Counted from the stretch's first letter, positions 9,423 through 48,074 are shown. The stretch: 64,000 nucleotides of DNA from a virus (IMGVR_UViG_3300029305_003072); one strand, 5' to 3'. The notes: a model not told the origin generated them from the letters alone. Numbers and translations are program-made.

Positions 9423-11159
9423 TTAGAAATAGTATTTCTGTTCTCCTACGATTTCGTAATCTTCAATAATAATTTGTGGTGTTACCGTTCCATTCCAAAC
9501 GTTGCGCTCACATTTACCCACAACGTTGATAGTAATGCATCCGGATTCGGAGCGGAGTTTTTCATACTCTTCTTGTGACGACTTGAATTTGATTAAACTC
9601 GTGCCATTTGGCAAGGTTATCTTCAGAGTCGGACTCTTATCGGGCGACATTAAAACTACATTACCTGCATATACATTAATGTATTCAATCGCCACATAAG
9701 GTTCATCGACTCCTTGGCCCCATAAAGATTTGAGTTCAGCGATTTCAACAATATCTTTTCCACGGAAATCAGCACCATTGAAAATGAAATCAACTTTATA
9801 ACATGGGGTAAAGTCAAATTCTGCGAGTTCTCGATTAGAGTATTCAATAAAGGTTTTAAATGCTTCATCAGTAATGCCAACACCCAATGCGTTAGCATGG
9901 CCTTCGGCATACATGACTAAATCACTTTCCTTTAAGAATTCTCTTAGGTTATCAAATTTCGATTTATCGTATCCTCTTCCTGAACCCTCCCAGCCATCTA
10001 CTGTCTTATTTAGTAGCAGAACTGGTCGTTGATATTTCGCCATTAGTTGGTTTGCAATCAAACCAGTAAGGTTTCTATCGGCCGCAAAAGTATCTAATTT
10101 GACAACCAAAATCTTATTCTCTAACAGATTTTTTTCTTTGATTATGCGTTCAATGTTCTCCAAGGCTGCGTCTCTTGCTTTTGTCTGTCTATTTTTAATG
10201 TTTGTGCAATTACGACAAGCCTGCTCTACTCTTGTCTCCTGCTGACCCTTACATCCTCTCTTGGTTGATGGGACTAGTTCATATCCCCGATAGTCAAGCA
10301 TAGACTCGAATAGCATGAGCTTTTCTTCTTGCGTTCCCATTCGAATAGTGGCATTTACATAGGGAGCAATATAGAAAGCTACTCCAATAGGTGTGATTTC
10401 ACCTTTCAGCGAATACGCTTGTTTGTCTACCATACCTTTGAAGTATGGATTACGAATATTTTCAAGACCGCGTGTAATCAGATGTCTCGTTTCAAAATCT
10501 CGTAAGTCCATCATGTCGGCCACCATGCCCAGTGCGACCAAATCCAAATAATCATCTGCGTAATCAACATTGAGGAGTTCATCCATATAAGAACAGAACT
10601 TATATACCATTCCAACTCCAGACAAAGACTTGGTGGGATAATCACAAAGTTGATTGTTAATAATCACAGCATTTTCGGAAATTTTATCTGCTTCATGGTG
10701 GTCAATTACCAACACATCCACTCCTTTGGACTTCAACTGTTGATGTTCATCATAGTCATTAGAACTAGAGTCTGGTGCGATAACCAGTTTTACATCATCA
10801 GGGATGGTTTCCAAAAGAATTCCGTGTTGTTTCCCCGTATGGATACGATAGTAAATATTAGATTGCACAAAGCCGGGGAAAAGACGATTTAAATAGTTGA
10901 TTAAAGCGGCGGCTGAAGTATAACCATCACAGTCGCTATCAATCTAAATTAGAACTTTGTCACCTTGTGCAATGTGTTTCACGAGGACTTTTGCGCCCTC
11001 TGCGACATTCATAATCATCTATGGATTAAGAATATCTTCATCTGTTGTGTTTAAATAGTGTTCTACATTTTCGGGGTCAATACCTCGATTAAACAGCACC
11101 TGTTCGACCGCACTTAATTCTCTAGGCGGGATGCGAGATGCTAAAAGTTGATATTCCAT
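9423..11159 (-). CDS. recJ: RecJ-like DHH-family ssDNA exonuclease, 578 aa, with 2 in-frame TAGs
   Basis: DHH motif I KVLI*IDSDCDGYTSAAAL and VIDHHE. ATG at 11159 with an AAGGAGG RBS. The TAGs at 11018-11020 and 10946-10948 are in frame with ORF 9423..10868. Confidence 0.6.
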
Positions 11160-34833: not shown

Positions 34834-36342
34834 TTAGCTGTTGTTGTCGGCAATCTTGGCGCCAATCATACCACTGATGACAGACATGGGGTCTACACCA
34901 GTTGCGCCCTTGAAGCCTTCGATAATCTGGGTCATGTTACCCATCATGTTGCCAGCCAGCTGACCGGAATCGTTACCAATCAGGTGGATGTCAGCACCGG
35001 CGTAACCCTTACCGATAGCTTCGGCAATTGCAGGCAGCTGCTCATACAGCACCTTAACTGCATCCAGTTCCATCTGCTGCTTAGCGGCGTCGCCGTACTG
35101 CTTCAGAGCTTCAGCCTTCTCCAGCATACCCTTTGCTTCAGCCTCAGCCTTAGCACGGATAGCCTCTGCTTCTGCCAGACCCTTTGCCTGTTCAGCAGCA
35201 GCTTCTGCTTCACCCTGTGCCTTGATAGCGGCAGCCAGTGCCTTCTTAGCTTCTGCCTCAGCAGTAGCCAGAGCCAGGTCAGCCGCAGCCTTCTTTTCAG
35301 CCTCGATACGAGCAGCTTCAGCCAGCTTCTCACGCTCATACAGGTCAGCTTCCGCAGCCTTCTGAGCGGCGTATGCCTTAGCATCAGCAACCTGCTGTGC
35401 AGCGTACTTGTCAGCGTCAGCCTTCTTCTTAATCTCAGCTTCCAGCTTACGCTCGGTGATAGCAACCTCGCGCTCCTTCAGCTCGATTTCCTTCTCCTGA
35501 CGAGCCAGGTTTGCGTTTGCCACAGCGATTTCGTGTTCCTTACGCTGGTGCTCGGCCTCGATAGCCTTAGCAGCGTCAGCCTTTGCCTGAGCGGTGTCAG
35601 CCTGCTCCTGCATGGCTGCCTTTTCAACAGCGAACTCGGTCTGCTTCTTAGCAATCTCGGTAGCAGCCTTGACCTTTGCGTCGTTAGCTGCCTTGTCGTT
35701 CTCAGCCTCGGCAACGGCGATTTCACGCTGAGCATTGGACTTCGCAATGGCAGCGCCCTTACGAATCTGCTCGACGTTGTCGATACCAAGGTTGTCAATT
35801 ACGCCACCCTCGTCGGAGAAGTTCTGAACATTGAAGGATACCAGTTCCAGACCGAACTTAGCCAGGTCAGGAACGACGTTTGCCTGAACCTTATCAGAGA
35901 ATGCCTTACGGTCAGAAACCATTTCAGTCAGCTTCATCTGACCAACGATTTCACGCACATTACCTTCCAGAAGGTCATTAATCTTGGCACCAATGGTATC
36001 TCGATTGATGTTCAGGAAGTTCTGAGCGGCAAGAGCAATCATTTCATCGGAACGGCCAACACGAACAGCAACAGTAGAGTCAACACGGACGTTGATATAC
36101 TCGGCGGTAGGAACCGCAGTCTTGGTCTTTACGTCAATCTGAATCGCACCAAGAGACAGCTTATCAAGACGCTCGAAGAAAGGAATCTTGATGCCGGCCT
36201 GGCCAATCAGGATACGGGGCTTCTTGCGGACACCGGAAATGATATAAGCCATATCAGGGGGTGCCTTGGTATAACCAGAAGCAAGCAGGATGATGACTGC
36301 CAGAGCAATCAGTGCGGGAACAATCAGACTAAGAATTTCCAT
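34834..36342 (-). CDS. SPFH/band-7 (flotillin-like) protein with a long Ala/Glu/Lys-rich coiled coil, 502 aa
   Basis: N-terminal TM, SPFH core, and a C-terminal EA-repeat coiled coil. The antisense +strand ORF 34717..36411 is an artefact of low-complexity codons. Confidence 0.75.
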   Translation of the reverse strand: MEILSLIVPALIALAVIILLASGYTKAPPDMAYIISGVRKKPRILIGQAGIKIPFFERLDKLSLGAIQIDVKTKTAVPTAEYINVRVDSTVAVRVGRSDEMIALAAQNFLNINRDTIGAKINDLLEGNVREIVGQMKLTEMVSDRKAFSDKVQANVVPDLAKFGLELVSFNVQNFSDEGGVIDNLGIDNVEQIRKGAAIAKSNAQREIAVAEAENDKAANDAKVKAATEIAKKQTEFAVEKAAMQEQADTAQAKADAAKAIEAEHQRKEHEIAVANANLARQEKEIELKEREVAITERKLEAEIKKKADADKYAAQQVADAKAYAAQKAAEADLYEREKLAEAARIEAEKKAAADLALATAEAEAKKALAAAIKAQGEAEAAAEQAKGLAEAEAIRAKAEAEAKGMLEKAEALKQYGDAAKQQMELDAVKVLYEQLPAIAEAIGKGYAGADIHLIGNDSGQLAGNMMGNMTQIIEGFKGATGVDPMSVISGMIGAKIADNNS

Positions 36343-36970: not shown

Positions 36971-37558
36971 CTAAAGCATCGCAAGACACTTGGCGGTTTC
37001 TTCTCTCATCATTTCAATTGCATCATCCAAGAGGATAGGAGTGCAATTATTGGAGTCCATGCCCACATGGAACATATAAGGCATATCCTCATAAAATCTC
37101 TTCTGTTGATGAGTATGACCGAAGAGATTGATTAGATGCATTCTCAAATAAGGAGCTTTCTCCAAATTGGAAGTCATTGTAGGATGGTGGCTCAAATAGA
37201 AGTTGTACTTCTTGTACTTCATCATAGCCGCCGCAGGCTGAAGACCATTTGCAAGAGGCTCCAGCACAGTCACATTGGGCAACTGCTTATACAACTCAAT
37301 GCGGGCCGCAGTATCGTGGTTGCCAGGGATGATGGTAATGTGACCATTCAATCTCTTCAAGCAACTAATACCATGAGCATTGTCATTAAGCATTACATCG
37401 CCCAAATGGAAAACTTCATCTTCGGGATTGACCACAGAGTTCCATCTTCGGATTACCTCTTCATCATGCTCCTGGATGGAGGTGAAGCCACGAGGTCCGT
37501 AGAGGAATTCTCGGTCATGACCGAAGTGAGTATCACTCGTTACAAAAGTTCTACTCAT
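36971..37558 (-). CDS. Calcineurin-like metallophosphoesterase (probable phosphatase partner of the Pnk kinase)
   Basis: DTHFGH...GDVMLNDNAH...GNHD motifs. The start overlaps the kinase stop (ATGA coupling). Confidence 0.65.
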   Translation of the reverse strand: MSRTFVTSDTHFGHDREFLYGPRGFTSIQEHDEEVIRRWNSVVNPEDEVFHLGDVMLNDNAHGISCLKRLNGHITIIPGNHDTAARIELYKQLPNVTVLEPLANGLQPAAAMMKYKKYNFYLSHHPTMTSNLEKAPYLRMHLINLFGHTHQQKRFYEDMPYMFHVGMDSNNCTPILLDDAIEMMREETAKCLAML

Positions 37559-38100
37559 ACATTTACCTCCTTTGTGACACCCTCTGCGTTAACCGCGTAG
37601 ACGTGGGTGAAACCCTCTTCCGCAGTGGGATACGCAAAGGACTTAAACATATTATCAATCGCACTCACGGGAACTCTTGCTCGACCGGAGCGGAGTGAAT
37701 TTCTTGCCTGGCAAAGCTCACGAGGCGTTGTGAAACACACACAGTTAAGCTCACCAATATTATTTTTCTTGACTCGATTAAGAGTTTTGTTACGAGAACG
37801 CTTATTCAAATGAGTAGCGTCGATGTAAATAGTGTGAATATCTTCTCTTTCAAGGGTCTGATTGATGTAGTTAATGAAAGTGTCGAATACTTCATCCTCA
37901 TGGGAGAAATACTCTTCATCTTCACCAACAATGGCAAATCTCACATTGTCGCGAGAAATCCATTCAGAACCAGGCGTAATATTCGCACGCACCCACGTGG
38001 ACTTACCCGACGCAGGAGGCCCCGACAAAAGATAAACTTTCTTTAGCTTCATCCTTATACACCCCATTAGCAAAATTTTCACGAAACTCTTCAACTTCAT
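37555..38100 (-). CDS. P-loop polynucleotide 5-prime-kinase-like protein
   Basis: LLSGPPASGKSTW Walker A, small size, and T4-Pnk-kinase-like order of motifs. Confidence 0.55.
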   Translation of the reverse strand: MKLKSFVKILLMGCIRMKLKKVYLLSGPPASGKSTWVRANITPGSEWISRDNVRFAIVGEDEEYFSHEDEVFDTFINYINQTLEREDIHTIYIDATHLNKRSRNKTLNRVKKNNIGELNCVCFTTPRELCQARNSLRSGRARVPVSAIDNMFKSFAYPTAEEGFTHVYAVNAEGVTKEVNV

Positions 38101-38538: not shown

Positions 38539-38567
38539 TATTATATCATATTTTTTTATAAAAATCA
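38539..38567 (-). promoter_or_regulatory. Promoter cassette TTGATTTTTATAAAAAAATATGATATAAT
   Basis: Member of the near-identical 34-bp cassette family. Confidence 0.65.
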
Positions 38568-38568
38568 A

Positions 38569-39285
38569 TTAAGACAAATAGGGGTCAGAGCAGAAGACCT
38601 CTTCATCCCAAGTATCCAGGTTCAACAGAACACAGTAGCCAGTAAAGACGGCGCCGCAATCAATGCAGCATTTCTTTCCACCAGCGTACCAAAGTGCACC
38701 AGGTTCGATTTCTCCCATGCGGCAAGCAGGGTCAATATCTTCCAAAAGATATGGAATTGGAGTGTGTCCGTGAACAATAATCGCCTTTTGGAAGATTTCA
38801 TCTTCGGGCCAGGGGTCAAGGAAATGGTCTCTATCCCAAATTAAATCTTCAGTCCACACCCAGCGCATTTGACCTTGGTGGTCAGTTTGTGGAGTGAAAC
38901 CAGCATGAGAGAGATATACAGTTTCACCTTGTGTGTTGACATATGTTGCCTTATCAGGCAGTCCAGCAAGGCGGCCTTTCCAATTTTGCCAATCAGGCTC
39001 TTCCATAGCTTCCTCAAAGGTTTTCTTACCTCCGTTGCTACGAAGCAAAGCAAATGCAGAGCCATAGCCACGGCCCATTGCTTTAACTAGCATATCTTCA
39101 TGGTTGCCTTTTAAATAAATAAATTGGGGGTCATCAAGAATGGTTTTGATGCATTCCCAAGGGTGCGGTCCGCGGTCACCAGCGTCACCAAGGAAGTAAA
39201 CTACATCTTCTGGCTGAAGCATATCCTTAATAGCCTTATAGAAGTGTAGCATACCATGTAAATCAGAACAAGCATATACAGCCAT
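38569..39285 (-). CDS. PPP-family Ser/Thr protein phosphatase (lambda-PPase-like)
   Basis: GDLHG-like DLHG, GDAGDRG, GNHE and GHTP motifs. The start at 39285 has an AGGAGG RBS and overlaps the upstream stop (TAATG). Confidence 0.75.
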   Translation of the reverse strand: MAVYACSDLHGMLHFYKAIKDMLQPEDVVYFLGDAGDRGPHPWECIKTILDDPQFIYLKGNHEDMLVKAMGRGYGSAFALLRSNGGKKTFEEAMEEPDWQNWKGRLAGLPDKATYVNTQGETVYLSHAGFTPQTDHQGQMRWVWTEDLIWDRDHFLDPWPEDEIFQKAIIVHGHTPIPYLLEDIDPACRMGEIEPGALWYAGGKKCCIDCGAVFTGYCVLLNLDTWDEEVFCSDPYLS

Positions 39286-39506
39286 TATTTTACCTCCTTC
39301 TCTGGAATTAATACGAACATATAGCCCGTACATTTAGGAGGTTCACCCTCCTTAATCATTTTTGCAAGACTTTTTTCAAGGGATTCGATAGTTGTTTGCA
39401 TATATTCATGACCCTTTTCGTAGCCTGTAATCGCTGCGAAAGGAGGGTTATTAATTGGCATTTTCATACCATCTATAAAAATATATCCCTTAATTCCAAA
39501 CATCAA
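39285..39506 (-). CDS. Hypothetical protein, 73 aa
   Basis: ORF only. Confidence 0.3.
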   Translation of the reverse strand: MMFGIKGYIFIDGMKMPINNPPFAAITGYEKGHEYMQTTIESLEKSLAKMIKEGEPPKCTGYMFVLIPEKEVK

Positions 39507-40081
39507 CCTTTCGCCTCGCTTAAATAGTTTCTAATTTCTTCTCGATAATTATAAACATATCGAGGAACAAGTTTTTCAATCATCGGGTCGCTATTAGGCA
39601 TCTGAAAAGCCTGGCGAACCAATGTTGCACTAATACCTTCGAATCTATCAAGAAATTTAAATCGAAGTAACCATCTTTCATCTTGGGCAAACCAACCGAG
39701 CATAATACGGGGGTCATCACTGTAATAGATAGTCATATCAGAATCTTTGGTTTTACTAAACATCTTGATATAAAGATATCGGCCCCATGCGTGGCTATTG
39801 TCAGCTTCATCAGTCATATCAGCTAAAGGAAAAATATGAATATATTTCATTTGTTCTGTTGTAAAATGTTCGTGAAGAGAGCCTTCCAAAAGCATGATAC
39901 GAAAATCAATGGGTAGAGGATTGCGGACAGTGCCGCTCTTATCGGCAGAGCCAACGAAGATATAAAGGTCGCAATTATTTGCGGCGCAATCTTCATAAGC
40001 CTTTTGAACCATATTTAAATGTCCTCTATGAAAAGGCTGTGCTCTAAATAAAATAACACCTGTCATAATAATTCTCCTCAC
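39503..40081 (-). CDS. Nicotinamide-nucleotide adenylyltransferase (NadM-type cytidylyltransferase fold)
   Basis: GVILFRAQPFHRGHLNMV carries the (H/T)xGH motif. Size is about 190 aa. Confidence 0.7.
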   Translation of the reverse strand: MRRIIMTGVILFRAQPFHRGHLNMVQKAYEDCAANNCDLYIFVGSADKSGTVRNPLPIDFRIMLLEGSLHEHFTTEQMKYIHIFPLADMTDEADNSHAWGRYLYIKMFSKTKDSDMTIYYSDDPRIMLGWFAQDERWLLRFKFLDRFEGISATLVRQAFQMPNSDPMIEKLVPRYVYNYREEIRNYLSEAKG

Positions 40082-40395
40082 TTAATCACTAAATCTTTTG
40101 CTTCTTCTTGAGTGATACCGAAATAGTCTTCAAAAATTTCCATATCACCAGGGTCACAAGCCCCAGAACAGATACATTTTCCCTCATGCAACACCCAATA
40201 CCACATACCATCGGGGTATTTAATTAAATGCTCTATTAAAGCAAAAAAATCTTTAATATTGGGACAACCATATACAGCAACTAAACCCTCACCGGTAAAT
40301 TCATCTGTGAAATAAATATAAGGGTCTGCTACGACACGGTCTCGAATTTTATCTGTAAAAGCTACAATGATAGGAGCATCAATATTCACAGTCAT
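40078..40395 (-). CDS. Hypothetical protein, 105 aa
   Basis: ORF with a promoter upstream. Confidence 0.3.
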   Translation of the reverse strand: MTVNIDAPIIVAFTDKIRDRVVADPYIYFTDEFTGEGLVAVYGCPNIKDFFALIEHLIKYPDGMWYWVLHEGKCICSGACDPGDMEIFEDYFGITQEEAKDLVIK

Positions 40396-40428: not shown

Positions 40429-40457
40429 ATTATAACATATTTTTTAATAAAAATCAA
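40429..40457 (-). promoter_or_regulatory. Promoter cassette (TTGATT-N17-TATAAT)
   Basis: Member of the conserved cassette family. Confidence 0.65.
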
Positions 40458-40467
40458 AGAGGAAGCA

Positions 40468-40995
40468 TTAAGCTTCCTCTAAGATATGGAGAATGTCGTC
40501 AACAATAGCATCATAACCAACTATATCGCCAGTGGAAATTGTATAAGGGAGTTGCTCCTTATTGAGCAATTCCAAAATTTCATCAGCAATCTTATCAGAT
40601 TCTTCTTCAGTCTGGAATCGTCCTACTGGATTATATTCTTTGGTGCGAACTAGGAAATAGTTTTTACAATTGTAGCTGTTCATTACTTTGCGGACGACAT
40701 TATTAAAATCTTCGCCCAAAACGGGGTCATGGTTATAAACTAAAGATAGAAGTAAGGGAGAGTCAGTAATAACAACATCAACTTTATCAGCACAACGGCT
40801 GATGCGGAAATATTGCTTACCAAAGATGTAAGCCTGATTATTGAAAACAGCTTTACTCTCTTCCCATACCTTATCCTTAGCGAACTCAGTTACCAGCTCT
40901 GCGTTAATACCACGCATTTTGAGCTGGCTGAAGATATATGCGGCACCAGTAGACTTACCAGTACCAGGAGAACCAAAAAGATTAACTAAAATCAT
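40468..40995 (-). CDS. P-loop kinase/ATPase (possibly a ribosylnicotinamide-kinase-like enzyme)
   Basis: LFGSPGTGKSTGA Walker A. Its position inside the NAD island is the only basis for the suggested substrate. Confidence 0.4.
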   Translation of the reverse strand: MILVNLFGSPGTGKSTGAAYIFSQLKMRGINAELVTEFAKDKVWEESKAVFNNQAYIFGKQYFRISRCADKVDVVITDSPLLLSLVYNHDPVLGEDFNNVVRKVMNSYNCKNYFLVRTKEYNPVGRFQTEEESDKIADEILELLNKEQLPYTISTGDIVGYDAIVDDILHILEEA

Positions 40996-41511
40996 TTATT
41001 TTCCTCCATATGATAATTTGAAATCAGTTTTTTCTGTTTTTTTATAAGTAGATGCATTTTTAGCATAGGTACTTTCTGCTTCGCGCAATTCTTGGCGCAC
41101 ATCCATTAAAATTTTACCAAGAATATTTTTACCTTCGATTTCTGCACACTTGGGGCAAACACAATTACCCCAAGTATTATCATGCCAAGTATTGCCTTCT
41201 ACTAATTCTTCATCACCAGTGTCTAAAAGTTTTTGTTTTAAATCGGGGTCAGAAAATTTGTATTTCAAACCATCATGCATTACACTAATCTTAATACGCT
41301 CCCAGTCAGGGCGCAAAGAGCAGTGTCGCCCCATTCGCTTTGCCTGTCCAGGTGTTTTTGCTTTTGCAATAGCTTTAAATTCACTTTCACTCTTGGTTTT
41401 CCAAGCTTGGAACCAGTGTTCCACAGTAGGAAAAGTTACACCATCTACAGTAAAAGGAGAGGGGAAAAAGTTGCTTAGGAAAGCGTACTTTCCATCAAAC
41501 ATCGCAATCAT
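40996..41511 (-). CDS. NADAR (YbiA/DUF1768) domain protein
   Basis: FLSNFFPSPF...HWFQAWK is the NADAR signature. Confidence 0.7.
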   Translation of the reverse strand: MIAMFDGKYAFLSNFFPSPFTVDGVTFPTVEHWFQAWKTKSESEFKAIAKAKTPGQAKRMGRHCSLRPDWERIKISVMHDGLKYKFSDPDLKQKLLDTGDEELVEGNTWHDNTWGNCVCPKCAEIEGKNILGKILMDVRQELREAESTYAKNASTYKKTEKTDFKLSYGGK

Positions 41512-41523
41512 AGCGATACCTCC

Positions 41524-42330
41524 TTAGAAACTAAATGGACTTTCTTCTTTGTTGCTGTTTTCGTGCCAAGCACGAGTCTTGATACGAATATAGGGCATGC
41601 AAATATCTCTTTTATGGAGATTTCTGGTGTGGCGCTCTTCAATCTTGCGAAGAGTCTCATAGTCGGGAAGTACTTCATCCAAAAGATAAGCATCCAGTAC
41701 ATCATAAGGAATACCAGTGTTATCTTCATCGGTCTTACCACTCATACCATCACCAGGTGCCTTATGAACCAGGTGTGCGGGCAACTCATCCAGATTGTCG
41801 CCAATCTCAATGACCTCACGGACGCAGTAATCCTTTAAGATAGCGAAGTCGCCAGCCAGGTCACCATACTTGGTAGTGTAGCCGATATACAGTTCGGATT
41901 TATTGCCAGTATTGATTACTCGACCGCCCATATCTGCGGCAACTGCGTAAAGAGTTGCCATACGGATACGAGCAGGCGTATTTGTATTAACTGCGGGATT
42001 TTTATAGGCGTCACCCACCATTCCCGCAAACATCTTGGTGATAGGGCCAATATTGTAGGCTCTATAGGGAATATGAAGAATGTTGCATACTTCCACAGAG
42101 TCCTTAATATCCTTCTGGTCACCATCGGGCATCAGCACACCAAAAACTCTTTCGGGACCCAGTGCTCGGACAAGCAGGGCGGCCGCAATCGTGGAATCCT
42201 TACCACCGGAAATACCAATAACTGCCTTGGTATTCTCATTACCATTCTTGACAAAATATTTCTTAATTTCATCAACAATGTGCTGGATTTCCTCTTCAAC
42301 ATCAATTACTTTGAAATCAAAATCACCCAT
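41524..42330 (-). CDS. nadE: NH3-dependent NAD+ synthetase NadE
   Basis: PP-loop GISGGKDSTIAAAL and the correct length. Confidence 0.85.
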   Translation of the reverse strand: MGDFDFKVIDVEEEIQHIVDEIKKYFVKNGNENTKAVIGISGGKDSTIAAALLVRALGPERVFGVLMPDGDQKDIKDSVEVCNILHIPYRAYNIGPITKMFAGMVGDAYKNPAVNTNTPARIRMATLYAVAADMGGRVINTGNKSELYIGYTTKYGDLAGDFAILKDYCVREVIEIGDNLDELPAHLVHKAPGDGMSGKTDEDNTGIPYDVLDAYLLDEVLPDYETLRKIEERHTRNLHKRDICMPYIRIKTRAWHENSNKEESPFSF

Positions 42331-42332
42331 AT

Positions 42333-42839
42333 TTACGCCTCCAGTTTGTAAATATATACATCATAGTCCTCAGAAAGGGCTTCCCAAATCATCGTTTTAA
42401 TTACTTCCCAATTTGCGCCACCAAGGCCGCAGCCAATATGGTCAGGAAAGCCAATTTTACTGCCGTGGGGTACCTGGTCCCTAATCTTACCAAGACAAGA
42501 CCAGAAGCCATCATAAGAAGTATATCTCTTACCATCATAGCCATAATATTGCTGTGCAAACATATTTATCACAGTCTTGTCTACATCAACAGGAACTAAC
42601 TGAATCTCGCCCAGAAGGGTATCAGTCCAGTCGGGTCCGTTTTCCATCCCGCCGCACATTTGATAGATTTCTTCTTCTCTCTTGGTGCAGAGGGCAATAT
42701 AATCTTCATATACTCGATGCCATCTTGTTTTAATGTTCTTGGCGATGCCAGAGGCCATGCGCCCCTGGCAATTCACCTGATGGCAGTAATAATCCAATTT
42801 CGCTTCGAGCATATCACCTTTAATAAAGTGAATACTCAT
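42333..42839 (-). CDS. Macro domain protein (ADP-ribose/O-acetyl-ADP-ribose processing)
   Basis: HQVNCQGRMASGIA and a later GCGLGG motif. Confidence 0.75.
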   Translation of the reverse strand: MSIHFIKGDMLEAKLDYYCHQVNCQGRMASGIAKNIKTRWHRVYEDYIALCTKREEEIYQMCGGMENGPDWTDTLLGEIQLVPVDVDKTVINMFAQQYYGYDGKRYTSYDGFWSCLGKIRDQVPHGSKIGFPDHIGCGLGGANWEVIKTMIWEALSEDYDVYIYKLEA

Positions 42840-44386
42840 TACGCAATCTCCGGATACAGACGAGCACGAATTTCGTGGAAATTTTCAATATTCTTCAGAA
42901 AACCATCTGCGAAGGAGGTGCGAAGCAGGGTTTCATCATCGGGAACCCATTCGCCATAGCCGTCAATGCATACAAACTCATCCTTGTCGGGGTGAATCTG
43001 AACCGCGCAGCAACCTTTATGGGACTTCTTCAGTCCGCCCTCGTCAGTCTTGGGGTCCTTATAGATAGGAACTTCCTTGCCGCCAAAGATACCGTGAGTA
43101 GCCTTCATTGCCATGCCCCAGGTATCACGAGTCAGAACAGTGAACTTATTGTCGGGGCTGAACAGAGCGTGGAAGCAGAAAGCACCAACACCGAAGACCA
43201 CATTGGTAGCCGCGAAGCCCAGCTGAGCCAGAGTTTCGTAAATTTCACGAACCTTATTCAGAGTGCAGCCGTCACCATAAATCAGACCAATATGGGGGTC
43301 CAGAACCTTATAGCCAGCTTCATTGATGGTGCCACCAAACTCATCCCACAGTTTCTGGATAGTGCCGATGGTAATGGAAACCATGTCGCCAGAGTCAGGA
43401 CGGATAAGCAGCTTGCCATTGTGAGCCAAAATTTCAGCCTTGCAGGCAGGAATGATATTGTCTACCATATTCCAGTAGTCATAGGTATCAGATACCATAG
43501 AGAAACTGGTATTGGGGTAAATTTCAGTCAGCATACGCTTCACAAAAGTGATTTCATCGCCGTCGATTGCGAAATTCGCAGCCATAACAGAGTGTTCAGT
43601 GGAAACGGCACCCAGACCCAGCTTATGCTCGGCGCACTGTGCGTCGTAATAGTCGTCCAGGTAGGGTAGCGCAGGAATGGTAGAGGTCTTATTGAAAGAC
43701 AGGAGCCAAGAAGCGGAGCAACGAGTTGCGTCTTCCAGGCAGCTCATACCACGGAAACCGAAGTCAGCCATTGCCATAAAGGGGTCGGCGCCGGGGGCAG
43801 TCATATCGTAATACTTCTTTGCAATCTTGTGGTATTCCCAACCAACGGTCGCATATGCACACATAGGCCACACTTCAGTCTGGAGCAGGCACTCAACCCA
43901 CTGAACCAGCCATGCGAAACGAGGGTGAGTATTTCTCATCTCAACGATGGGAACACCCATATTGACAACAGTGCCTTCGGGCAAGGCGCGGATTTCCAGG
44001 GGCAGATAACCCAGCTCATGCAGTTCAACGATGCGATTACGAGCGACATTGTTGATACCCAGGTGAGCATCAATATAATGGTCATACTCATACATCACCC
44101 AGTCCAGAGGAGTGGCGAAGAAGCTGTCGAAGCCTTCCTTCATATCAGTGAGGAAAGGATGAACGCCCCAAACGACCATCTTGGGGAAATTCTCATTCAT
44201 AGCCTTTCGAGGAGTCAGGTAAGAAGCCAGAAACTCCTGATTGTCAGGATACATCAGGGGGTGGCACTGCTTGTAAGAGTCGCTGTACAGCATAATCATT
44301 CTACGAAAATCCATATTATCAATTTCCTTTCTTTTTTCTCGCAATGCGGATTCGTTTACTTTCCATCTTGTTAGGAATATGCTCAC
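42839..44386 (-). CDS. nadV: Nicotinamide phosphoribosyltransferase (NAMPT/NadV), 515 aa
   Basis: YSDSYKQCH (DSYK motif), plus length and overall NAPRTase-superfamily layout. Confidence 0.85.
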   Translation of the reverse strand: MSIFLTRWKVNESALREKRKEIDNMDFRRMIMLYSDSYKQCHPLMYPDNQEFLASYLTPRKAMNENFPKMVVWGVHPFLTDMKEGFDSFFATPLDWVMYEYDHYIDAHLGINNVARNRIVELHELGYLPLEIRALPEGTVVNMGVPIVEMRNTHPRFAWLVQWVECLLQTEVWPMCAYATVGWEYHKIAKKYYDMTAPGADPFMAMADFGFRGMSCLEDATRCSASWLLSFNKTSTIPALPYLDDYYDAQCAEHKLGLGAVSTEHSVMAANFAIDGDEITFVKRMLTEIYPNTSFSMVSDTYDYWNMVDNIIPACKAEILAHNGKLLIRPDSGDMVSITIGTIQKLWDEFGGTINEAGYKVLDPHIGLIYGDGCTLNKVREIYETLAQLGFAATNVVFGVGAFCFHALFSPDNKFTVLTRDTWGMAMKATHGIFGGKEVPIYKDPKTDEGGLKKSHKGCCAVQIHPDKDEFVCIDGYGEWVPDDETLLRTSFADGFLKNIENFHEIRARLYPEIA

Positions 44387-44567
44387 GGGTCGCCAGTTCA
44401 GCTTTTACACGAGCCTGGTAGGCTCTCTTGGCGGAATAATCTGCATCTTCCCAGTCATAATCGCCCCAGCGATATGTATGTCGCAGATGTGCCAGAAGCT
44501 GGCGAGTTTTCAGATTTTTCATCTGCTCTTCGGAGAGGATTCCGCAGTCTCTTTCAAAGTTACTCAT
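44319..44567 (-). CDS. Hypothetical basic protein, 82 aa
   Basis: ORF with a promoter upstream. Confidence 0.3.
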   Translation of the reverse strand: MSNFERDCGILSEEQMKNLKTRQLLAHLRHTYRWGDYDWEDADYSAKRAYQARVKAELATREHIPNKMESKRIRIARKKKGN

Positions 44568-44595
44568 TTAATCACTTCCTTTACTTTCTATATAT

Positions 44596-44624
44596 ATTAT
44601 ATCATATTTTTTTATAAAAATCAA
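44596..44624 (-). promoter_or_regulatory. Promoter cassette (TTGATT-N17-TATAAT)
   Basis: Conserved cassette. A hairpin terminator lies immediately 5-prime on the minus strand. Confidence 0.65.
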
Positions 44625-44655
44625 AAAAGCCCCTTGAGTCTCAAGGGGCTTTTAC
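44623..44655 (-). terminator. Rho-independent terminator
   Basis: Stem agcccctt/aaggggct followed by a T-run. Confidence 0.65.
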
Positions 44656-45057
44656 TTATTCCACTCTATCTTCATATAAGGTGAGGCCGCATTCTCCAGA
44701 TTCGGGGAACCACTCGCAAATAGAAGTGATTTTACCATCATAATCAGTGAAAATAACATATTCCATTCCGTCACTCATTACGAGGAAATATGTCCAACAA
44801 GCGCACCTATACTCTTGGAGCATAAACACATCGGGAACGTGTGCAAGAACTGTGCCAATAAAATCTTCATTCCCAATTCTCGGACCAATCATATCCTCTA
44901 AAATGAGAATAGCGTTTTCGTTAAGGTCGGGAATGGATTCAACAATTGTTTCCGTAGACGATGGGGTTTCTTCATAAGGGGTGTCGCAAGCAATAAGTGA
45001 TACACAAAGGCAAATTGCCAAAACAAAGCAAATAAAAAGTTTAATCGCTTTCTTCAT
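44656..45057 (-). CDS. Putative lipoprotein
   Basis: Signal peptide with lipobox LIAC. Confidence 0.45.
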   Translation of the reverse strand: MKKAIKLFICFVLAICLCVSLIACDTPYEETPSSTETIVESIPDLNENAILILEDMIGPRIGNEDFIGTVLAHVPDVFMLQEYRCACWTYFLVMSDGMEYVIFTDYDGKITSICEWFPESGECGLTLYEDRVE

Positions 45058-45827
45058 TTCACTTCTCCTTCGGGAATTTCAATTAAATTGAAGACATCTT
45101 GAATATCTTCATGGAAGACCAGCTCAGCTCTGAAATCTGCTACTGTAGGGTCTCTGTTAATGACAACCAGATGACTATCATCGCAGTAGAATGGCAGGCT
45201 TGCGGCAGGTTGAACTACCAGGGAGCTACCAACCACAATCATCAGGTCGGCTTGAGCAGCTGCCACCTGGGCATTGCTCCAAGCAGGAAATGCCAGCCCT
45301 TCACCATACAGGACAATATCGGGTCGGATAGTGCCTTCGCCGCACAGAGGGCATTTAGGAATATCATTTAGATTATTGTAGTTTCCATCCAATACATCTT
45401 CTGGAATAAACAAGTCGTGACCACAATCCTGGCAATACCAACGACTCATAGTACCGTGGACAGCATATATCCTATCCATGCCAGTGTCTTCGTGTAAACC
45501 ATCAATATTTTGTGTAATCACAGACACTTTTCTTGCTTCCTGCAGCTCAGAAATTCTTTGATGGGCGATGGTTGGCTTAGCTCCACGAAAATCCATTTTT
45601 TCACGCAGATACTCGAAAAAAGCCTGTTCGTGCTTCTGAAGGCAGGTGCTGCTCAGCATATATTCCGGACTCTTGCCTCCAATATACGGACTTGCGTACA
45701 GACCATCCGCACTGCGGAAATCCGGAATACCGGAGCCAGTTGAGATACCGGCTCCGGTAAAAAACACGATATGCCGAGCGTCCGCAATTATCTTATTTAG
45801 TTTCGCAATACGCTCATTAAAATCCAT
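45054..45827 (-). CDS. Sir2-family NAD-dependent deacylase (sirtuin/CobB-like)
   Basis: FFTGAGISTGSGIPDFRS, Zn ribbon CQDCG...CPLCG, and catalytic HG. Confidence 0.8.
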   Translation of the reverse strand: MDFNERIAKLNKIIADARHIVFFTGAGISTGSGIPDFRSADGLYASPYIGGKSPEYMLSSTCLQKHEQAFFEYLREKMDFRGAKPTIAHQRISELQEARKVSVITQNIDGLHEDTGMDRIYAVHGTMSRWYCQDCGHDLFIPEDVLDGNYNNLNDIPKCPLCGEGTIRPDIVLYGEGLAFPAWSNAQVAAAQADLMIVVGSSLVVQPAASLPFYCDDSHLVVINRDPTVADFRAELVFHEDIQDVFNLIEIPEGEVK

Positions 45828-45830
45828 ATC

Positions 45831-46349
45831 TTACTCTCCCATTTGTGCCTTGACGCAAGCATCGCCTGCAGCCATAGCTTCTTTCAGTGCCTCTTGGGCA
45901 ACCTTCATATCGCAGCCCTCTTTCTTCAAGAAAGGCATCACATTCTTCATAATGACACCCTTATTACCAGAGCAGATAGAAACTGCGTTACAAACTCCCC
46001 AGTAGTTAATCATCTTGACAATTTCATCCTTGTCGTCGATAACCTTAGGAGCATACTCCAAAGCGATAGAGAGCTTCATCAGATATTCAGCCTTACGAGC
46101 CTTCAATTCTGCATCTCTCTTGGGGTCTGTTGCCCCATCGGGACAGGTATCGACCATCTCTTGGACAGTCTTCTTATACTTCAACATCACTTCATCGACA
46201 AAAGCATCTGTGATTTCTACTCTCTTTTTACCAGAGGTAGCAGCTTTGTCGATTGTGGCGACCATATCAGCCAGAGTCAAACGTCTCAGCTTATCGCCGT
46301 TTTTCAAGGCAGTTGTCATATCTGCCTTAATAGACTCATACTTATTCAT
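45831..46349 (-). CDS. YqeY/GatB-like domain protein
   Basis: Loose similarity to the GatB_Yqey family (ALKNGDKLRRLTL). Confidence 0.4.
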   Translation of the reverse strand: MNKYESIKADMTTALKNGDKLRRLTLADMVATIDKAATSGKKRVEITDAFVDEVMLKYKKTVQEMVDTCPDGATDPKRDAELKARKAEYLMKLSIALEYAPKVIDDKDEIVKMINYWGVCNAVSICSGNKGVIMKNVMPFLKKEGCDMKVAQEALKEAMAAGDACVKAQMGE

Positions 46350-46367: not shown

Positions 46368-47195
46368 TTAATGATATACAGTAATCCATTCCTTCCAGTA
46401 AGGGTCATAACCTTCGTTGAATAACTCTTCGGGGAAAATGGACTTAGTGGTATAGACATGGTCAACAAGACCATCAGTGCTGGCCATTTCACCCAAAATA
46501 ATAGTCTTTTCGCAATGGGTGACATACAGACTTACGCTCTTGGCGCCAGCAGCCTTAAGAGCTTTAGCAGAATGGTAGAAAGTACCACCACGAGAACAGA
46601 TATCGTCAACGATAAGAACATTCTTATCCTTAACTGCTTCGGCGTTGATAATATCCAGGCCCTGAATCTGACCGGTCTTCCAATCTCGCTTTTTCATTCC
46701 AAAAGCGTAAGGAATATCAAACCCACCAGAATAACGCTTCATAGCACCTTCATCGGGGAAGAAGAGTACATCAGCCTGAGCCTCAAAAATTGCATCCAGA
46801 ACATAATTAGTAATGGGCATTTCTTCTACATTGTTCAGAAGGGCCAGGCTTACGTTGCTATGTGCGTCACGCACATGAACAACCTTGAAATTCAGAGAGT
46901 TGATAACTTCGCAGAAATACTTGAGAGTGAAAACATCTTCATCAGACTTCACTCGGTCCATGCGGGCATGGGGGATGTAAGGCATTTCCAGAACAACATC
47001 GCTGTAAGAATAGACGCGGTCCAGATGGCGCTTTACGCAAATCAAAGAGAAAAGCTCTGCATCATTTTCATAATACCACTCGACCAGAATATTACCGCGA
47101 GTGTCAAATTCATCCCCATTGGGGTCAAACTTCATCAACAGAGTGCCATCGGGGAACTGACCCTGCTTAATTTCGACATTACCTACTTTAATCAT
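46368..47195 (-). CDS. prs: Ribose-phosphate pyrophosphokinase (PRPP synthetase)-like
   Basis: N-terminal FPDGT and the PRTase motif VLIVDDICSRGGTF. Confidence 0.7.
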   Translation of the reverse strand: MIKVGNVEIKQGQFPDGTLLMKFDPNGDEFDTRGNILVEWYYENDAELFSLICVKRHLDRVYSYSDVVLEMPYIPHARMDRVKSDEDVFTLKYFCEVINSLNFKVVHVRDAHSNVSLALLNNVEEMPITNYVLDAIFEAQADVLFFPDEGAMKRYSGGFDIPYAFGMKKRDWKTGQIQGLDIINAEAVKDKNVLIVDDICSRGGTFYHSAKALKAAGAKSVSLYVTHCEKTIILGEMASTDGLVDHVYTTKSIFPEELFNEGYDPYWKEWITVYH

Positions 47196-47484
47196 ACATT
47201 TTCCTCCATGTTTCTCCCATTCCGAGTTCTAAATCGGCACTTCCATTCCAACCGAATACTCGGAAAGCTCGTAATTTGATATATGCTTTATATCTTTTGA
47301 AATTGCCCTCGCAGTATAGAAAAGCTGAAGGACAATATGGCAAATCTTCTTCTTTCAATTCTGAAAGCTGTTCACGCGACATTAAGCAGCTTTCTCGCAA
47401 AGAGTTTAGATGATGTTGACCTGGCACAGCTTCATCGCCTCCAGAGCAGTCTTGTGGCTCTCGGGGGTAACACAGGCGCAGCAA
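47188..47484 (-). CDS. Hypothetical protein (overlaps the pncA 3-prime end; doubtful)
   Basis: ORF only. Confidence 0.2.
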   Translation of the reverse strand: MLRLCYPREPQDCSGGDEAVPGQHHLNSLRESCLMSREQLSELKEEDLPYCPSAFLYCEGNFKRYKAYIKLRAFRVFGWNGSADLELGMGETWRKMYD

Positions 47485-47996
47485 TCAGCAATCACATTCA
47501 CAGGAACCTCGGGCAGCGTAGCCTTAGCCAGAATGGCATTGGACATAACACAGATTCCGGTACACAGACCCATCAGAGTAACCTCTTCAACACCCAGACG
47601 CTCATTGATATCGAACAAAATGTTCTGCAGTTCGACAGAGCCAAAAGTAGGCTTTTCAACCTTGATAGGGTTAATGTCGGTCATGGGGTAGACCTCATAA
47701 GCGTCGGCATAGGTGTCGATAACATTGATGTAAGCCTTGAACACTTCATCAACAATGGAATGACCGGCAGTGCCCTTGATGCAATGACGAACCGGCAGAT
47801 TTTTACCCTCCAGGGTATCCATGTAATTTTCGGGATGAGTATCCTTGGTGAAGATAACCACAGTATCGGGAGCTGCCATCTGCTCAATGGTCTCTGCGAC
47901 CAGCGGAACGATAGCCTGCGCCTCCTTGGTGCCCAGGGAACCATCAACGAAATCCTTCTGCATATCTACGACAATAAGAACTTTCATATAATTCAT
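47406..47996 (-). CDS. pncA: Nicotinamidase/isochorismatase-family hydrolase (PncA-like)
   Basis: VLIVVDMQKDF and the catalytic Cys region GLCTGICV. Confidence 0.75.
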   Translation of the reverse strand: MNYMKVLIVVDMQKDFVDGSLGTKEAQAIVPLVAETIEQMAAPDTVVIFTKDTHPENYMDTLEGKNLPVRHCIKGTAGHSIVDEVFKAYINVIDTYADAYEVYPMTDINPIKVEKPTFGSVELQNILFDINERLGVEEVTLMGLCTGICVMSNAILAKATLPEVPVNVIADCCACVTPESHKTALEAMKLCQVNII

Positions 47997-48020: not shown

Positions 48021-48049
48021 TATTATAACATATTTTTTTATAAAAATCA
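48021..48049 (-). promoter_or_regulatory. Promoter cassette upstream of pncA
   Basis: Conserved cassette with terminator hairpin 48054-48074. Confidence 0.65.
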
Positions 48050-48074
48050 AAAAAGGGATGGGTTGCCCCATCCC
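48048..48074 (-). terminator. Rho-independent terminator after the MVP-like gene
   Basis: Stem gggatgggg/ccccatccc followed by a T-run. Confidence 0.7.

Follow-up and report, generated by a model that had tools for sequence, protein, structure and literature searches.

Several described systems resemble the locus reported here. In NARP1, released ADP-ribose and nicotinamide are rebuilt into NAD+ with the help of the ADP-ribose pyrophosphokinase Adps and of Namat, in which Arg306 is catalytic and Phe392/Tyr396 form an aromatic adenine clamp (PMC12774641). The extended version NARP1-AP, described for Vibrio phage Gary with the gene order Adps-macro-Namat, contains in addition Adpp, a macro-domain ADPR-1''-phosphate phosphatase. 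Osterman et al. (bioRxiv 2026, 10.64898/2026.01.28.702374) found a macro gene of this kind in 15% of NARP1 operons and demonstrated its ADPR-1P phosphatase activity. NARP2 (KVP40) consists of Nampt and Nmnat, and NARP3 (Bas30) of PnuC and a NadR-like protein. Orphan phage NADARs, called AdfN (T4 gp30.3, Bas32, Bas60), are experimentally established anti-DarTG1 factors, and rescue from DarTG1 by a phage NADAR is known in three cases (Johannesman et al. 2025, PMC11825919). In vitro, hydrolysis of guanine-linked ADP-ribose was seen with every NADAR examined to date. Among the ALC1-like macrodomains, to which DarG, BT1257 and SCO6735 belong, the Gln-type SCO6735 removes thymidine-linked ADP-ribose from DNA (PMC9411070). 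Finally, the prediction survey of Iyer, Burroughs and Aravind (2022, PMC9503650) reported phage neighbourhoods with NADAR beside NadV/NadM-type salvage genes, co-occurring macro and NADAR genes, and sirtuins near genes for RNA ligase, kinase and calcineurin-like phosphoesterase.

We analysed a 64,000 nucleotide stretch of viral DNA, called the window in the following. The original prediction had taken a NADAR, a macro domain and a sirtuin (Sir2) gene between 40996, the final base of the NADAR stop codon, and 45827, where the Sir2 start codon begins, as a coordinated trio against DarTG inside an NAD-regenerating island. All three domain calls hold at these coordinates, for NADAR and Sir2 by Pfam and NCBIfam and for the macro domain by PDB, PHROG and AlphaFold2/Foldseek. 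The island was also borne out: at least 10 NAD-related genes, far above chance, lie within the surrounding 10 kb, and the whole gene set of this region is on the minus strand. The three genes themselves are not adjacent. NadE separates NADAR from the macro gene, which in turn is separated from Sir2 by a NAMPT-like gene, an 82-aa ORF and a lipoprotein-like ORF. The trio is interleaved with genes for a Prs-like Adps, a Namat-clade NAMPT, NadE, PncA, a NadR-type kinase and an NMNAT. The window contains 18 copies of a promoter motif, compared to 1.2 expected, and every copy lies on the minus strand. Three copies directly follow terminator-like hairpins: TTGATT-N17-TATAAT at 48050-48022 after the hairpin 48076-48053 (start of unit A), 44624-44596 after a 13-bp stem at 44653-44625 (boundary of units A and B), and 40457-40429 after the hairpin 40480-40458 (boundary of units B and C). 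The trio is spread across two such terminator- and promoter-bounded transcription units, with Sir2 outside the unit of the macro gene. It is not one discrete unit; its genes sit inside a larger NAD+ island.

We consider it somewhat more probable than otherwise that the locus is an expanded NAD+ reconstitution island around NARP1-AP, with NADAR as an autonomous accessory and the sirtuin in a separate sub-module. What follows draws on direct observations of domain identity, residue conservation, overlapping genes, transcription-unit signals and synteny.

The NAMPT homologue (491 aa, 42839..44314) starts from the ATG at 44314 after a AAAGGAAA ribosome-binding site. It matched the SpbetaL1 Namat (9w5x/9w5w) with 338 bits (7.8e-100) and human NAMPT with 170 bits, scores that place it in the Namat rather than the Nampt clade; the 593-aa homologue of the relatives similarly favours Namat over NAMPT. 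The equivalents of Arg306 and Phe392 are kept, as is the Thr-Arg-Asp 398-400 motif. At the expected Tyr396 position, however, the selectivity helix carries a 10-residue insertion, which we count against the NARP1 reading. The Prs-like protein (275 aa, 46368..47195; PHROG 619, 8.4e-76) is probably Adps. Against the NCBIfam PRPS model it scored 83.6, under the cut-off of 113, and against cellular PRPS structures only 33-55 bits were reached; its homologues comprise 1489 phage records, and its nearest relatives are phage proteins. Each gene has a small neighbour. An 82-aa ORF (44319..44567), kept upstream of Namat in relatives, is the first gene of unit B, and the stop of a 64-aa ORF read from the sequence (47188..47382) overlaps the Prs-like start (ATGATTAA), with a small ORF at the same position in the relative L067. 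Osterman et al. assign NARP1 where Adps lies within 10 genes of Namat; here the two are five genes apart. As in NARP1-AP, the Prs-like, Namat-clade and Poa1p-class macro genes are co-oriented, and the macro gene is attached directly to Namat. In contrast to NARP1-AP, Adps and Namat belong to different transcription units, the order is Namat-macro, and six further NAD-related genes are interleaved.

The macro gene (168 aa, 42333..42839) begins within the Namat stop codon (TAATG), such that base 42839 is common to both. The protein had no Pfam match at E<=0.01, but phmmer found BT1257 (7e-7) and the T. aquaticus DarG macro domain (1.2e-6) as well as Poa1p and TARG1 in the PDB. A profile of the family reached BT1257 (3e-32), SCO6735 (1.2e-27), M. 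tuberculosis DarG (1.3e-16) and Poa1p (2.5e-13), and PHROG 335, annotated 'phosphatase', matched at 4.3e-32. By its AlphaFold2 model (pLDDT 88.2), with DarG, Poa1p (6lfr, E 7e-9), TARG1, BT1257 and SCO6735 as top Foldseek matches, the fold is Poa1p/ALC1-like and of the TARG1/DarG/Poa1p class. An assignment as DarG-type eraser, as originally predicted, fits less well than Adpp. The catalytic lysine (Lys80 in T. aquaticus DarG) is absent: Gln96, invariant in the family, aligns with the corresponding lysine of M. tuberculosis DarG. The DarT-binding C-terminal domain is missing from this single-domain protein, there is no adjacent toxin, the NCBIfam DarG score is 53.5 at a cut-off of 250, and the PADLOC DarG match spans only profile positions 2-143 of 329. 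For SCO6735, His20, Asn23 and Gln96 correspond to its His24, Asn27 and Gln85, of which Asn27 and Gln85 are essential there, and its DNA-positioning Lys34 is replaced by Ser30. A thymidine-ADPr activity may therefore exist, as found for this Gln-type relative (PMC9411070). Vibrio phage RYC has, flanked by Adps and Namat, a macro gene whose product is 34% identical over 97% coverage, an arrangement also described for Gary; the invariant residues H20, N23, G31, Q96, G136, G141 and W144 are common to both proteins. As expected for Adpp, the window gene lies no more than two genes away from Adps or Namat. Its family scores, higher for SCO6735/BT1257 (1e-27 to 3e-32) than for Poa1p, count against Adpp. 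Overall, the macro protein is most likely a putative Adpp, i.e. a known helper of the NAD+ pathway, rather than an anti-DarTG eraser.

The NADAR (171 aa, 40996..41511) is of the YbiA type with Glu105. It exceeded the cut-offs of Pfam PF08719 (E 1.8e-32, 113 bits, cut-off 35) and NCBIfam TIGR02464 (108, cut-off 74), and E. coli YbiA (3.6e-19) and Phytophthora NADAR (5.7e-14) were its best solved structures. Every ADPr-contacting residue of the latter is kept: E31, K38, R62, W70, E105, D111 and W114 correspond to its E43, K50, R79, W89, E125, D130 and W133. Like the AdfN factors the protein is free-standing and keeps its catalytic residues intact; with the NADARs of T5-like phages, the source group of the Bas32 factor, it shares 42% identity. 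All ORFs of at least 150 aa between 37.5 and 48 kb were assigned to something other than a cognate DarT/ART, and PADLOC found no toxin among the small ORFs tested nearby. It differs from AdfN in being Glu-type, whereas T4-like phages have the His-type, in lying inside an NAD salvage operon and in bearing an extra His/Cys3 cluster. The N-terminal basic extension, by which DarT1-linked NADARs form their ssDNA groove, is lacking, with residue 8 aligning to YbiA residue 25. E. coli YbiA, a Glu-type NADAR too, gives no protection against DarT1 in vivo, which counts against an AdfN-like role. Nevertheless, stripping guanine ADP-ribose from phage DNA (AdfN-like, anti-DarT1) appears the most likely role, and the predicted ability of a phage NADAR to act as an anti-DarT1 eraser is now established for AdfN.

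The third gene (257 aa, 45054..45827) encodes, judged by its sequence, a canonical sirtuin of the NAD-dependent protein deacylase type. It matched PF02146 (E 9.2e-45), the Sir2-Af2 structure (7.6e-42) and the NCBIfam equivalog NF001752 'NAD-dependent protein deacylase' (253.7, cut-off 221), and contains GAGIS (25-29), QNIDGLH (106-112), the catalytic His124 and the zinc ligands Cys132/135/159/162. The PADLOC defence SIR2 models (ThsA, DSR, SIR2-HerA) gave no match at E<=0.01. Upstream lies a YqeY/GatB-tail-like gene (172 aa, 45831..46349; PF09424, E 5.5e-6, at the cut-off), which adjoins Sir2 in every Sir2-bearing relative. The Sir2 stop is overlapped by 4 bases by a lipoprotein-like ORF (133 aa, 44656..45057), called from its signal peptide and LIAC lipobox and matching no family in Pfam, PHROG or PADLOC. 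In the relatives YqeY accompanies Sir2, and usually Prs and PncA do so too, whereas macro and NADAR do not; PncA-Prs-YqeY-Sir2 forms a conserved block, to which we assign the sirtuin as a separate sub-module.

The remaining NAD genes extend the island beyond NARP1. The PncA-like nicotinamidase of isochorismatase fold (196 aa, 47406..47996; PF00857, E 3.6e-24) matched the NCBIfam nicotinamidase/pyrazinamidase model weakly. It would destroy the nicotinamide that Namat needs, which counts against the NARP1 reading. NadE, an NH3-dependent NAD+ synthetase (268 aa, 41524..42330), matched PF02540 (E 1e-50) and TIGR00552 (169.6, cut-off 63.65). An AAA_28 P-loop kinase resembling the NadR ribosylnicotinamide kinase domain (175 aa, 40468..40995; PF13521, E 1e-10) abuts NADAR, and an NMNAT-like adenylyltransferase (192 aa, 39503..40081; PF01467, E 1.4e-5, below cut-off for TIGR01527/NF002243) is preceded by a 105-aa ORF (40078-40395). 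The NMNAT-like gene beside a NAMPT homologue recalls NARP2, but the homologue is Namat-clade here. The kinase gene beside it recalls NARP3, but kinase and NMNAT are separate genes instead of one NadR, and the island contains no PnuC-like transporter, the sole membrane ORF nearby having 80 aa. The neighbourhoods of Iyer et al. differ by lacking an island of NadE, PncA, YqeY-Sir2 and a Namat-coupled macro gene. With their NADAR genes among NAD-salvage genes and their co-occurring macro and NADAR genes, and with the macro genes of NARP1 operons reported in 2026 (bioRxiv 10.64898/2026.01.28.702374), the combination that the original prediction was not aware of as a described phage unit is not undescribed.

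Among some two dozen contigs from related gut phages, the presence of one module at the shared hotspot is independent of that of the others. Sir2, macro and NADAR likewise vary independently of each other, which further speaks against the trio as one unit. The macro gene occurs without Sir2 in L004, L006, L014-18 and MT835544, while L077 contains Sir2 without macro and the Prs-like gene without Namat. The Namat-macro adjacency is repeated in MT835544, an unrelated human-faecal phage. Contigs L014-L018 keep macro and NADAR, here adjoining a T7 gp5.9-like RecBCD inhibitor; neither Adps nor Namat lies within 10 kb of them, and the macro protein must therefore have some use without NARP1. Like the Prs-like gene without Namat in L077, this counts against the NARP1 reading.

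For the NAD+ reconstitution island we infer the enzymatic activities, and the defence systems that would be countered, from sequence. The island would be expressed from the repeated identical sigma-70-type promoters. The Prs-like Adps would pyrophosphorylate ADP-ribose, and the Namat-clade enzyme would couple the product with nicotinamide, yielding NAD+. The macro protein (Adpp), translationally coupled to Namat, would convert ADPR-1''-phosphate, which RES-type immune NADases produce, into usable ADP-ribose. NadE, PncA, the ribosylnicotinamide-kinase-like protein and NMNAT would provide extra salvage routes. NADAR, as an intact ADP-ribosyl N-glycosidase, would act as an autonomous accessory and may also release ADP-ribose from other N-linked conjugates, and the sirtuin would be an NAD-dependent deacylase within its own sub-module. 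The locus would then represent a known type of counter-defence island in expanded form, rebuilding NAD+ destroyed by bacterial immunity. The idea that released ADP-ribose and nicotinamide can be recycled into NAD+ agrees with NARP1. An anti-DarTG function is plausible for NADAR, but it has weak support for the macro protein and none for Sir2.

An unlikely alternative that stays closer to the original prediction is a pair of DNA erasers, with NADAR acting on DarT1 guanine-ADPr and the macro protein on DarT2 thymidine-ADPr while NARP1 recycles the ADP-ribose. Orphan phage NADARs do neutralise DarTG1 (PMC11825919), DarG-like macro antitoxin mimics have been described in phage ICP1 and chimalliviruses, and thymidine-ADPr reversal is described as a unifying activity of the ALC1-like class, from which SCO6735 is the second-best solved relative of the macro protein. 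Macro and NADAR also remain together in L014-L018 in the absence of NAD genes, and Bacillus phage FADO has them two genes apart. However, the Lys80 and Lys34 replacements, the missing DarT-binding domain and the low DarG score all speak against a DarT2 eraser, as do the overlap with Namat and the homology to macro domains within NARP1 operons; the NADAR lacks the DNA-binding extension, and Sir2 is left without a role.

Still less likely, the trio serves the tRNA-repair genes nearby, among them RNA ligase, Thg1, a PNK-like kinase and phosphoesterases. Sir2, possibly targeted by YqeY (tRNA-binding-type), would remove 2'-phosphates with NAD+ in a KptA/Tpt1-like manner, a phosphoesterase and the Poa1p-like macro protein would convert ADPR>P via ADPR-1''P to ADPR, and NADAR would clear other adducts. 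The context contains an RNA ligase (51348-52766), Thg1 (55979-56869), an RNase T-like gene (53375-54283), an AAA_33 kinase and three calcineurin-like phosphoesterases, and the invariant backbone of the lineage runs from RNA ligase to NADAR-Metallophos-Zn88-AAA_33 kinase. Staphylococcus Kayvirus has NADAR near a metallophosphatase as well, yeast Poa1p acts downstream of Tpt1 (bioRxiv 10.64898/2026.01.28.702374), and Iyer et al. predicted an RNA-repair role for most viral sirtuins, NADAR and macro (PMC9503650). Yet Sir2 lies above the curated deacylase cut-off with a complete motif set. Only 4 Escherichia records match it, and it therefore probably falls outside the V5/SP15-type 'RNA-repair' sirtuin clade. 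We also know of no sirtuin that performs 2'-phosphotransfer, and wherever NARP1 is present the macro gene adjoins Namat and NadE, not RNA ligase. Least likely of all is a sirtuin cycle in which Sir2 deacylates host or phage proteins, PncA clears inhibitory nicotinamide and an OARD1/TARG1-like macro protein deacylates O-acyl-ADP-ribose; as NARP1 rebuilds NAD+, such an effector would work without net NAD+ cost. The canonical deacylase sequence, the conserved PncA-Prs-YqeY-Sir2 block and TARG1/OARD1 among the structural relatives of macro are in agreement with it, and in yeast nicotinamidase activates sirtuins. Macro and Sir2 nevertheless occur without each other in relatives and lie in separate transcription units here, and the Sir2 homologues of other phages stand alone.

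The carrier of the island is a large phage, probably of gut Clostridia. Downstream of the NMNAT-like gene a calcineurin-like phosphoesterase (38569..39333, minus strand; PF00149, E 1.8e-13) opens the conserved backbone Metallophos-TM80-Zn88-AAA_33 kinase. Since an NAD-dependent DNA ligase is also among its gene products, the phage needs NAD+.

The original prediction had read a macro domain, a NADAR domain and a Sir2 domain encoded between 40996 and 45827 as one candidate module that would reverse ADP-ribosylation and counter DarTG-type defence. All three domains are indeed encoded there, and these limits coincide exactly with gene boundaries, the NADAR gene (40996-41511) having its 3' end at 40996 and the Sir2 gene (45054-45827) its start codon at 45827. 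The macro gene lies at 42333-42839, and all genes of the 64 kb window are on the minus strand. NADAR (PF08719, 1.8e-32; above the TIGR02464 cut-off) and Sir2 (PF02146, 9.2e-45) were recognised by Pfam. For the macro gene no Pfam match was obtained at E<=0.01, such that Pfam by itself missed the domain and four other lines confirmed it. A PDB sequence search matched BT1257, DarG, Poa1p and TARG1. The family profile run against the PDB found BT1257 (3e-32), SCO6735 (1.2e-27), M. tuberculosis DarG (1.3e-16) and Poa1p (2.5e-13). PHROG 335 'phosphatase' matched at 4.3e-32, and the AlphaFold2 model (pLDDT 88.2) had as top Foldseek matches the ALC1-like-class macrodomains also found by the profile.

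The three genes are part of a larger NAD+ gene island. Running from 47996 to 39503 it comprises a PncA-like nicotinamidase, a 64-aa ORF, Prs-like, YqeY-like and Sir2 genes, a lipoprotein-like ORF, an 82-aa ORF, NAMPT-like, macro, NadE and NADAR genes, an AAA_28 (NadR-kinase-like) kinase, a 105-aa ORF and an NMNAT-like gene. We read it, with slightly better than even confidence, as an expanded NAD+ reconstitution island centred on NARP1-AP, for which we infer all enzymatic roles. The macro protein would be the ADPR-1''-phosphate phosphatase Adpp, the NADAR an autonomous ADP-ribosyl N-glycosidase (AdfN-like or a feeder), and Sir2 would belong to a separate module. The predicted counter-defence module thus survives in part: an anti-DarT1 role of the NADAR is credible, while the macro protein is best read as Adpp and Sir2 stands in another module.

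The transcriptional layout bears on this division. A promoter-like sequence, TTGATTTTTATAAAAAAATATGnTATAAT, is found in 18 copies in the window compared to 1.2 expected by chance, all of them on the coding (minus) strand (for example at 38540-38568, 40429-40457, 44596-44624, 48022-48050, 54322-54350 and 59538-59566). The copies are near-identical, of extended -10 type, and often directly follow a terminator hairpin. Within the island, a terminator-like hairpin followed by a copy occurs at 48076-48022, 44653-44596 and 40480-40429, and inside each block genes overlap or abut. Three putative transcription units can be delineated: unit A with PncA, the small ORF, Prs-like, YqeY, Sir2 and lipoprotein genes; unit B with the 82-aa ORF, Namat, macro, NadE, NADAR and kinase genes; and unit C with the 105-aa ORF, NMNAT, a possible 73-aa ORF (39285-39506) and a phosphoesterase. 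These predicted boundaries separate Sir2 from macro and NADAR. Since one promoter type is common to all three units, they are probably co-regulated. TTGATTTTTATAAAAAAATATGnTATAAT resembles an early or middle promoter class used across the phage, which has its own sigma-70-family factor gene (54596-55516). The lipoprotein-like ORF (44656-45057, minus strand; signal peptide and lipobox) is translationally coupled to the sirtuin, and in the related locus L078 a DUF5067 protein takes its place.

The core of the island would be NARP1, the pair of Adps and Namat that rebuilds NAD+ from ADP-ribose. The NAMPT-like protein scored 338 bits against SpbetaL1 Namat crystal structures, which we recognised by the residue numbering in PMC12774641, versus 170 bits against human NAMPT, and it keeps the equivalent of the catalytic Arg306. 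Started from the ATG at 44314, which has a good ribosome-binding site upstream, it is 491 aa long like SpbetaL1 Namat. The Prs-like protein has homologues in 1489 phage records and scores under the NCBI curated PRPS cut-off. With a Namat-clade protein and a Prs-like gene five genes away, the locus falls under the operational definition of NARP1 by Osterman et al. The PDB has no structure labelled Adps that could separate Adps from PRPS. Namat (42839-44314) has been exchanged among close relatives: the 491-aa version of the window is replaced by 581-593 aa versions with two insertions in L001, L064 and L066. Short and long versions share only 43% identity, with flanking genes 80-95% identical, and both are Namat-clade.

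The macro gene is tightly linked to this core, with its ATG and the stop codon of Namat overlapping as TAATG and its own stop two bases ahead of the NadE start. A total of 764 phage records contain a homologue. The one in Vibrio phage RYC, with 34% identity at 97% coverage, is flanked by Prs-like and NAMPT-like genes, matching the Adps-phosphatase-Namat order of Vibrio phage Gary. Gary Adpp removes the phosphate from ADPR-1''-phosphate and thereby enables NARP1 to overcome RES-domain NADases, and an Adpp-type macro gene is present in 15% of NARP1 operons (Osterman et al., 10.64898/2026.01.28.702374). Gary Adpp itself was absent among the top 60 matches, and comparisons with experimentally tested proteins use phage RYC and the T5-like phage Elw as proxies by synteny or family. 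In MT835544, a contig of an unrelated phage from human faeces, Prs, Namat, macro, NadE and PncA are consecutive genes, and both NADAR and Sir2 are absent from its 35 kb.

A DarG-type eraser, as proposed for the macro protein by the original prediction, is disfavoured. The family alignment has an invariant Gln96 at the position of the catalytic Lys80 of DarG (Lys84 of TARG1), the protein is a single domain, and it scores 53.5 bits on the NCBIfam DarG model against a cut-off of 250. By its sequence the protein is therefore not a DarG, and its gene is coupled to Namat. Activity on ADP-ribosylated DNA may exist nevertheless. SCO6735, which together with BT1257 is the nearest solved relative, also has Gln at the Lys80-equivalent position and is an efficient hydrolase of thymidine-linked ADP-ribose on DNA, able to rescue cells from DarT (PMC9411070). 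Its His24, Asn27 and Gln85 have equivalents in the window protein, whereas Ser30 replaces the DNA-positioning Lys34. Genomic context more strongly favours Adpp over a DNA eraser. Tempting as that reading is, a phage macro domain beside a NADAR is not necessarily a mimic of DarG.

For the NADAR, the proposed erasure of guanine-ADP-ribose against DarT1 has fared better, as a predicted activity. In the window protein the ADP-ribose contacts seen in the Phytophthora NADAR structure are all kept (E31, K38, R62, W70, E105, D111 and W114), with K74 as a conservative replacement of R93. Glu105 assigns it to the YbiA-type subfamily, in contrast to the Asp-type NADARs linked to DarT1 as antitoxins and the His-type NADARs of T4-like phages. 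It also lacks the N-terminal extension of DarT1-linked NADARs proposed to bind ssDNA. Homologues are found in 808 phage records, those of T5-like phages being 42% identical. Every NADAR assayed in published work, YbiA included, hydrolyses guanine-ADP-ribose on DNA in vitro, and none thymidine-ADP-ribose. E. coli YbiA or T4 gp30.3 expressed alone gave no protection from DarT1; the T4 AdfN acts in the infection context, and the NADARs of Bas32 (T5-like) and Bas60 neutralise DarT1 and rescue phages from DarTG1 (PMC11825919). These experiments make an anti-DarT1 role, an already known kind of function, credible for the window NADAR. NADARs of the lineage and some other phage NADARs share a WHDNTWGxCxCxxC motif (H110, C117, C119 and C122 in the window) that could bind zinc and is missing in T5-like and FADO NADARs.

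The sirtuin scores 253.7 against a cut-off of 221 on the curated equivalog 'NAD-dependent protein deacylase', and among solved structures it is closest to Archaeoglobus Sir2-Af2 and Thermotoga Sir2Tm. It has full NAD-binding motifs, the catalytic His124 and four zinc cysteines. With this complete deacylase motif set and no match to the PADLOC defence-system SIR2 models, a defence-type SIR2 NADase was rejected. Homologues occur in only 130 phage records; in Bacillus phages JL and KLEB27-3 and in one faecal phage contig the gene is solitary, with no other island genes nearby. A YqeY/GatB-tail-like gene (45831-46349) adjoins the sirtuin in every sirtuin-bearing relative, in either order (noted in L064, L066, L076, L077 and L078), which suggests a two-protein unit. 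In L077 the sirtuin frame (10001-10789) is split in two ORFs and may be a pseudogene or an assembly error; this relative is without Namat, macro, NadE and NADAR.

Co-localisation was followed in 59 IMG/VR loci fetched via NADAR, two via macro and two via Sir2, together with contigs from metagenomic homologues, all scanned with the island proteins; the sample covers +/-10 kb and is biased by its collection route. About two dozen contigs share the backbone of the window phage, with Thg1, sigma factor, RNase T-like and RNA ligase genes upstream and a phosphoesterase, an 80-aa membrane ORF, an 88-aa zinc-ribbon ORF and an AAA_33 kinase downstream. NADAR, macro, Sir2 and NAD genes occur together in eight contigs (Sir2 identity 56-86%), in one of which, L064, the Sir2-YqeY pair is relocated to the far island end. 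NARP1 genes, macro, NadE and NADAR are found without Sir2 in two (L004, L006), macro and NADAR only, with a T7 gp5.9-like RecBCD inhibitor between them, in five (L014-L018), and NADAR only in at least five. The single contig L077 has only PncA-Prs-YqeY-Sir2, with Namat through NADAR cleanly missing. Most NADAR loci outside the lineage have no island genes within 10 kb, in about nine NadE, NAMPT or PncA is close by, and in Bacillus phage FADO a macro gene lies two genes from NADAR. A Vequintavirus-like coliphage carries NARP1 alone, so NADAR, macro and Sir2 are not clustered with it there. For the refuting condition set by the original prediction, a co-localisation that relatives do not keep, the outcome is mixed, as the trio is together in the closest relatives and each gene is individually dispensable. 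The locus is clearly a hotspot whose modules are gained and lost independently, and no two of the three form an obligate pair. Such module swapping between close relatives is what changing selection on counter-defence genes would be expected to produce. A locus that collects counter-defence genes also agrees with the RecBCD inhibitor gene immediately next to NADAR (L014 9773-10000, L076 14810-15079).

A bolder joint reading, which we consider rather improbable, makes the NADAR a feeder enzyme of NARP1, the third one besides the macro phosphatase Adpp and the glycosidase RyDEP. Its predicted N-glycosidase activity would free linear ADP-ribose from N-linked species produced by host immunity (candidates being guanine-ADP-ribose on DNA, His-ADPR and N-linked cyclic ADPR signals), and Adps and Namat would convert it back to NAD+. 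The co-regulated PncA-Adps-YqeY-Sir2 block would then act as a phage effector that consumes NAD, with its by-products recycled by the island. The island has no unassigned ORF of sufficient size for a phage-borne DarT-NADAR or DarT-macro toxin-antitoxin pair, which was therefore rejected. Published functional systems (NARP1, NARP2, NARP1-AP, NARP3 and the NARP1-feeding RyDEP glycosidase) consist of 1-3 genes, mostly from phages of Proteobacteria, Bacillus and mycobacteria. A word search of the NARP1-AP and RyDEP papers returned no NADAR, the NARP3 paper contains one mention, and in our literature search no publication described a deacylase-type sirtuin of a phage within such an island. Phage versions were previously considered mostly aimed at soluble ADP-ribose derivatives, and most viral sirtuins were proposed to act in RNA repair (Iyer, Burroughs, Aravind 2022, PMC9503650). 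With NAD+ now viewed as a central battlefield of bacteria and phages, the reconstitution island would mean that a gut-Clostridia phage lineage stacks most of the published NAD+ routes in one, probably co-regulated, 10-kb hotspot. Two leads emerge: the repeated recruitment of NADAR beside NAD salvage genes, and a phage sirtuin of deacylase type that is tied to a YqeY-like protein and, in most relatives, also to a nicotinamidase.

The window is part of a large phage that encodes a Pol III-alpha-type polymerase, RecJ, DnaB, NAD-dependent DNA ligase, topoisomerase II, PhoH and a multidomain endolysin. A nucleotide search of cultured phages gave no close relative, only stretches of ~100-200 nt at ~75% identity. 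From the closest cellular relatives of the endolysin, in gut and rumen Clostridia MAGs (Oscillospiraceae, Faecousia, Faecalibacterium, Eubacterium), we infer gut Clostridia as hosts. With no Rfam match at gathering score and no tRNA, riboswitches and other known RNA elements were rejected. The lineage backbone keeps a 502-aa Band_7/SPFH flotillin-like protein (34834-36342, minus strand). RNA/tRNA-repair-type genes are dense around the island (51348-57756 and 36971-38100): a PHA02142-type RNA ligase, an RNase T-like exonuclease, a Thg1-like 3'-5' polymerase, an AAA_33 kinase and three calcineurin-like phosphoesterases. The variable hotspot also contains a Major Vault Protein-like gene of 838 aa (48089-50605, minus strand; MVP shoulder 2e-23, Vault_3 1.4e-8) with its own promoter and no PHROG or PADLOC match. 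Relatives carry homologues of 44-64% identity, directly upstream of NADAR in L007-L009. As eukaryotic vaults contain a NADase (TEP1) and PARP4, a link of this gene to NAD is conceivable.
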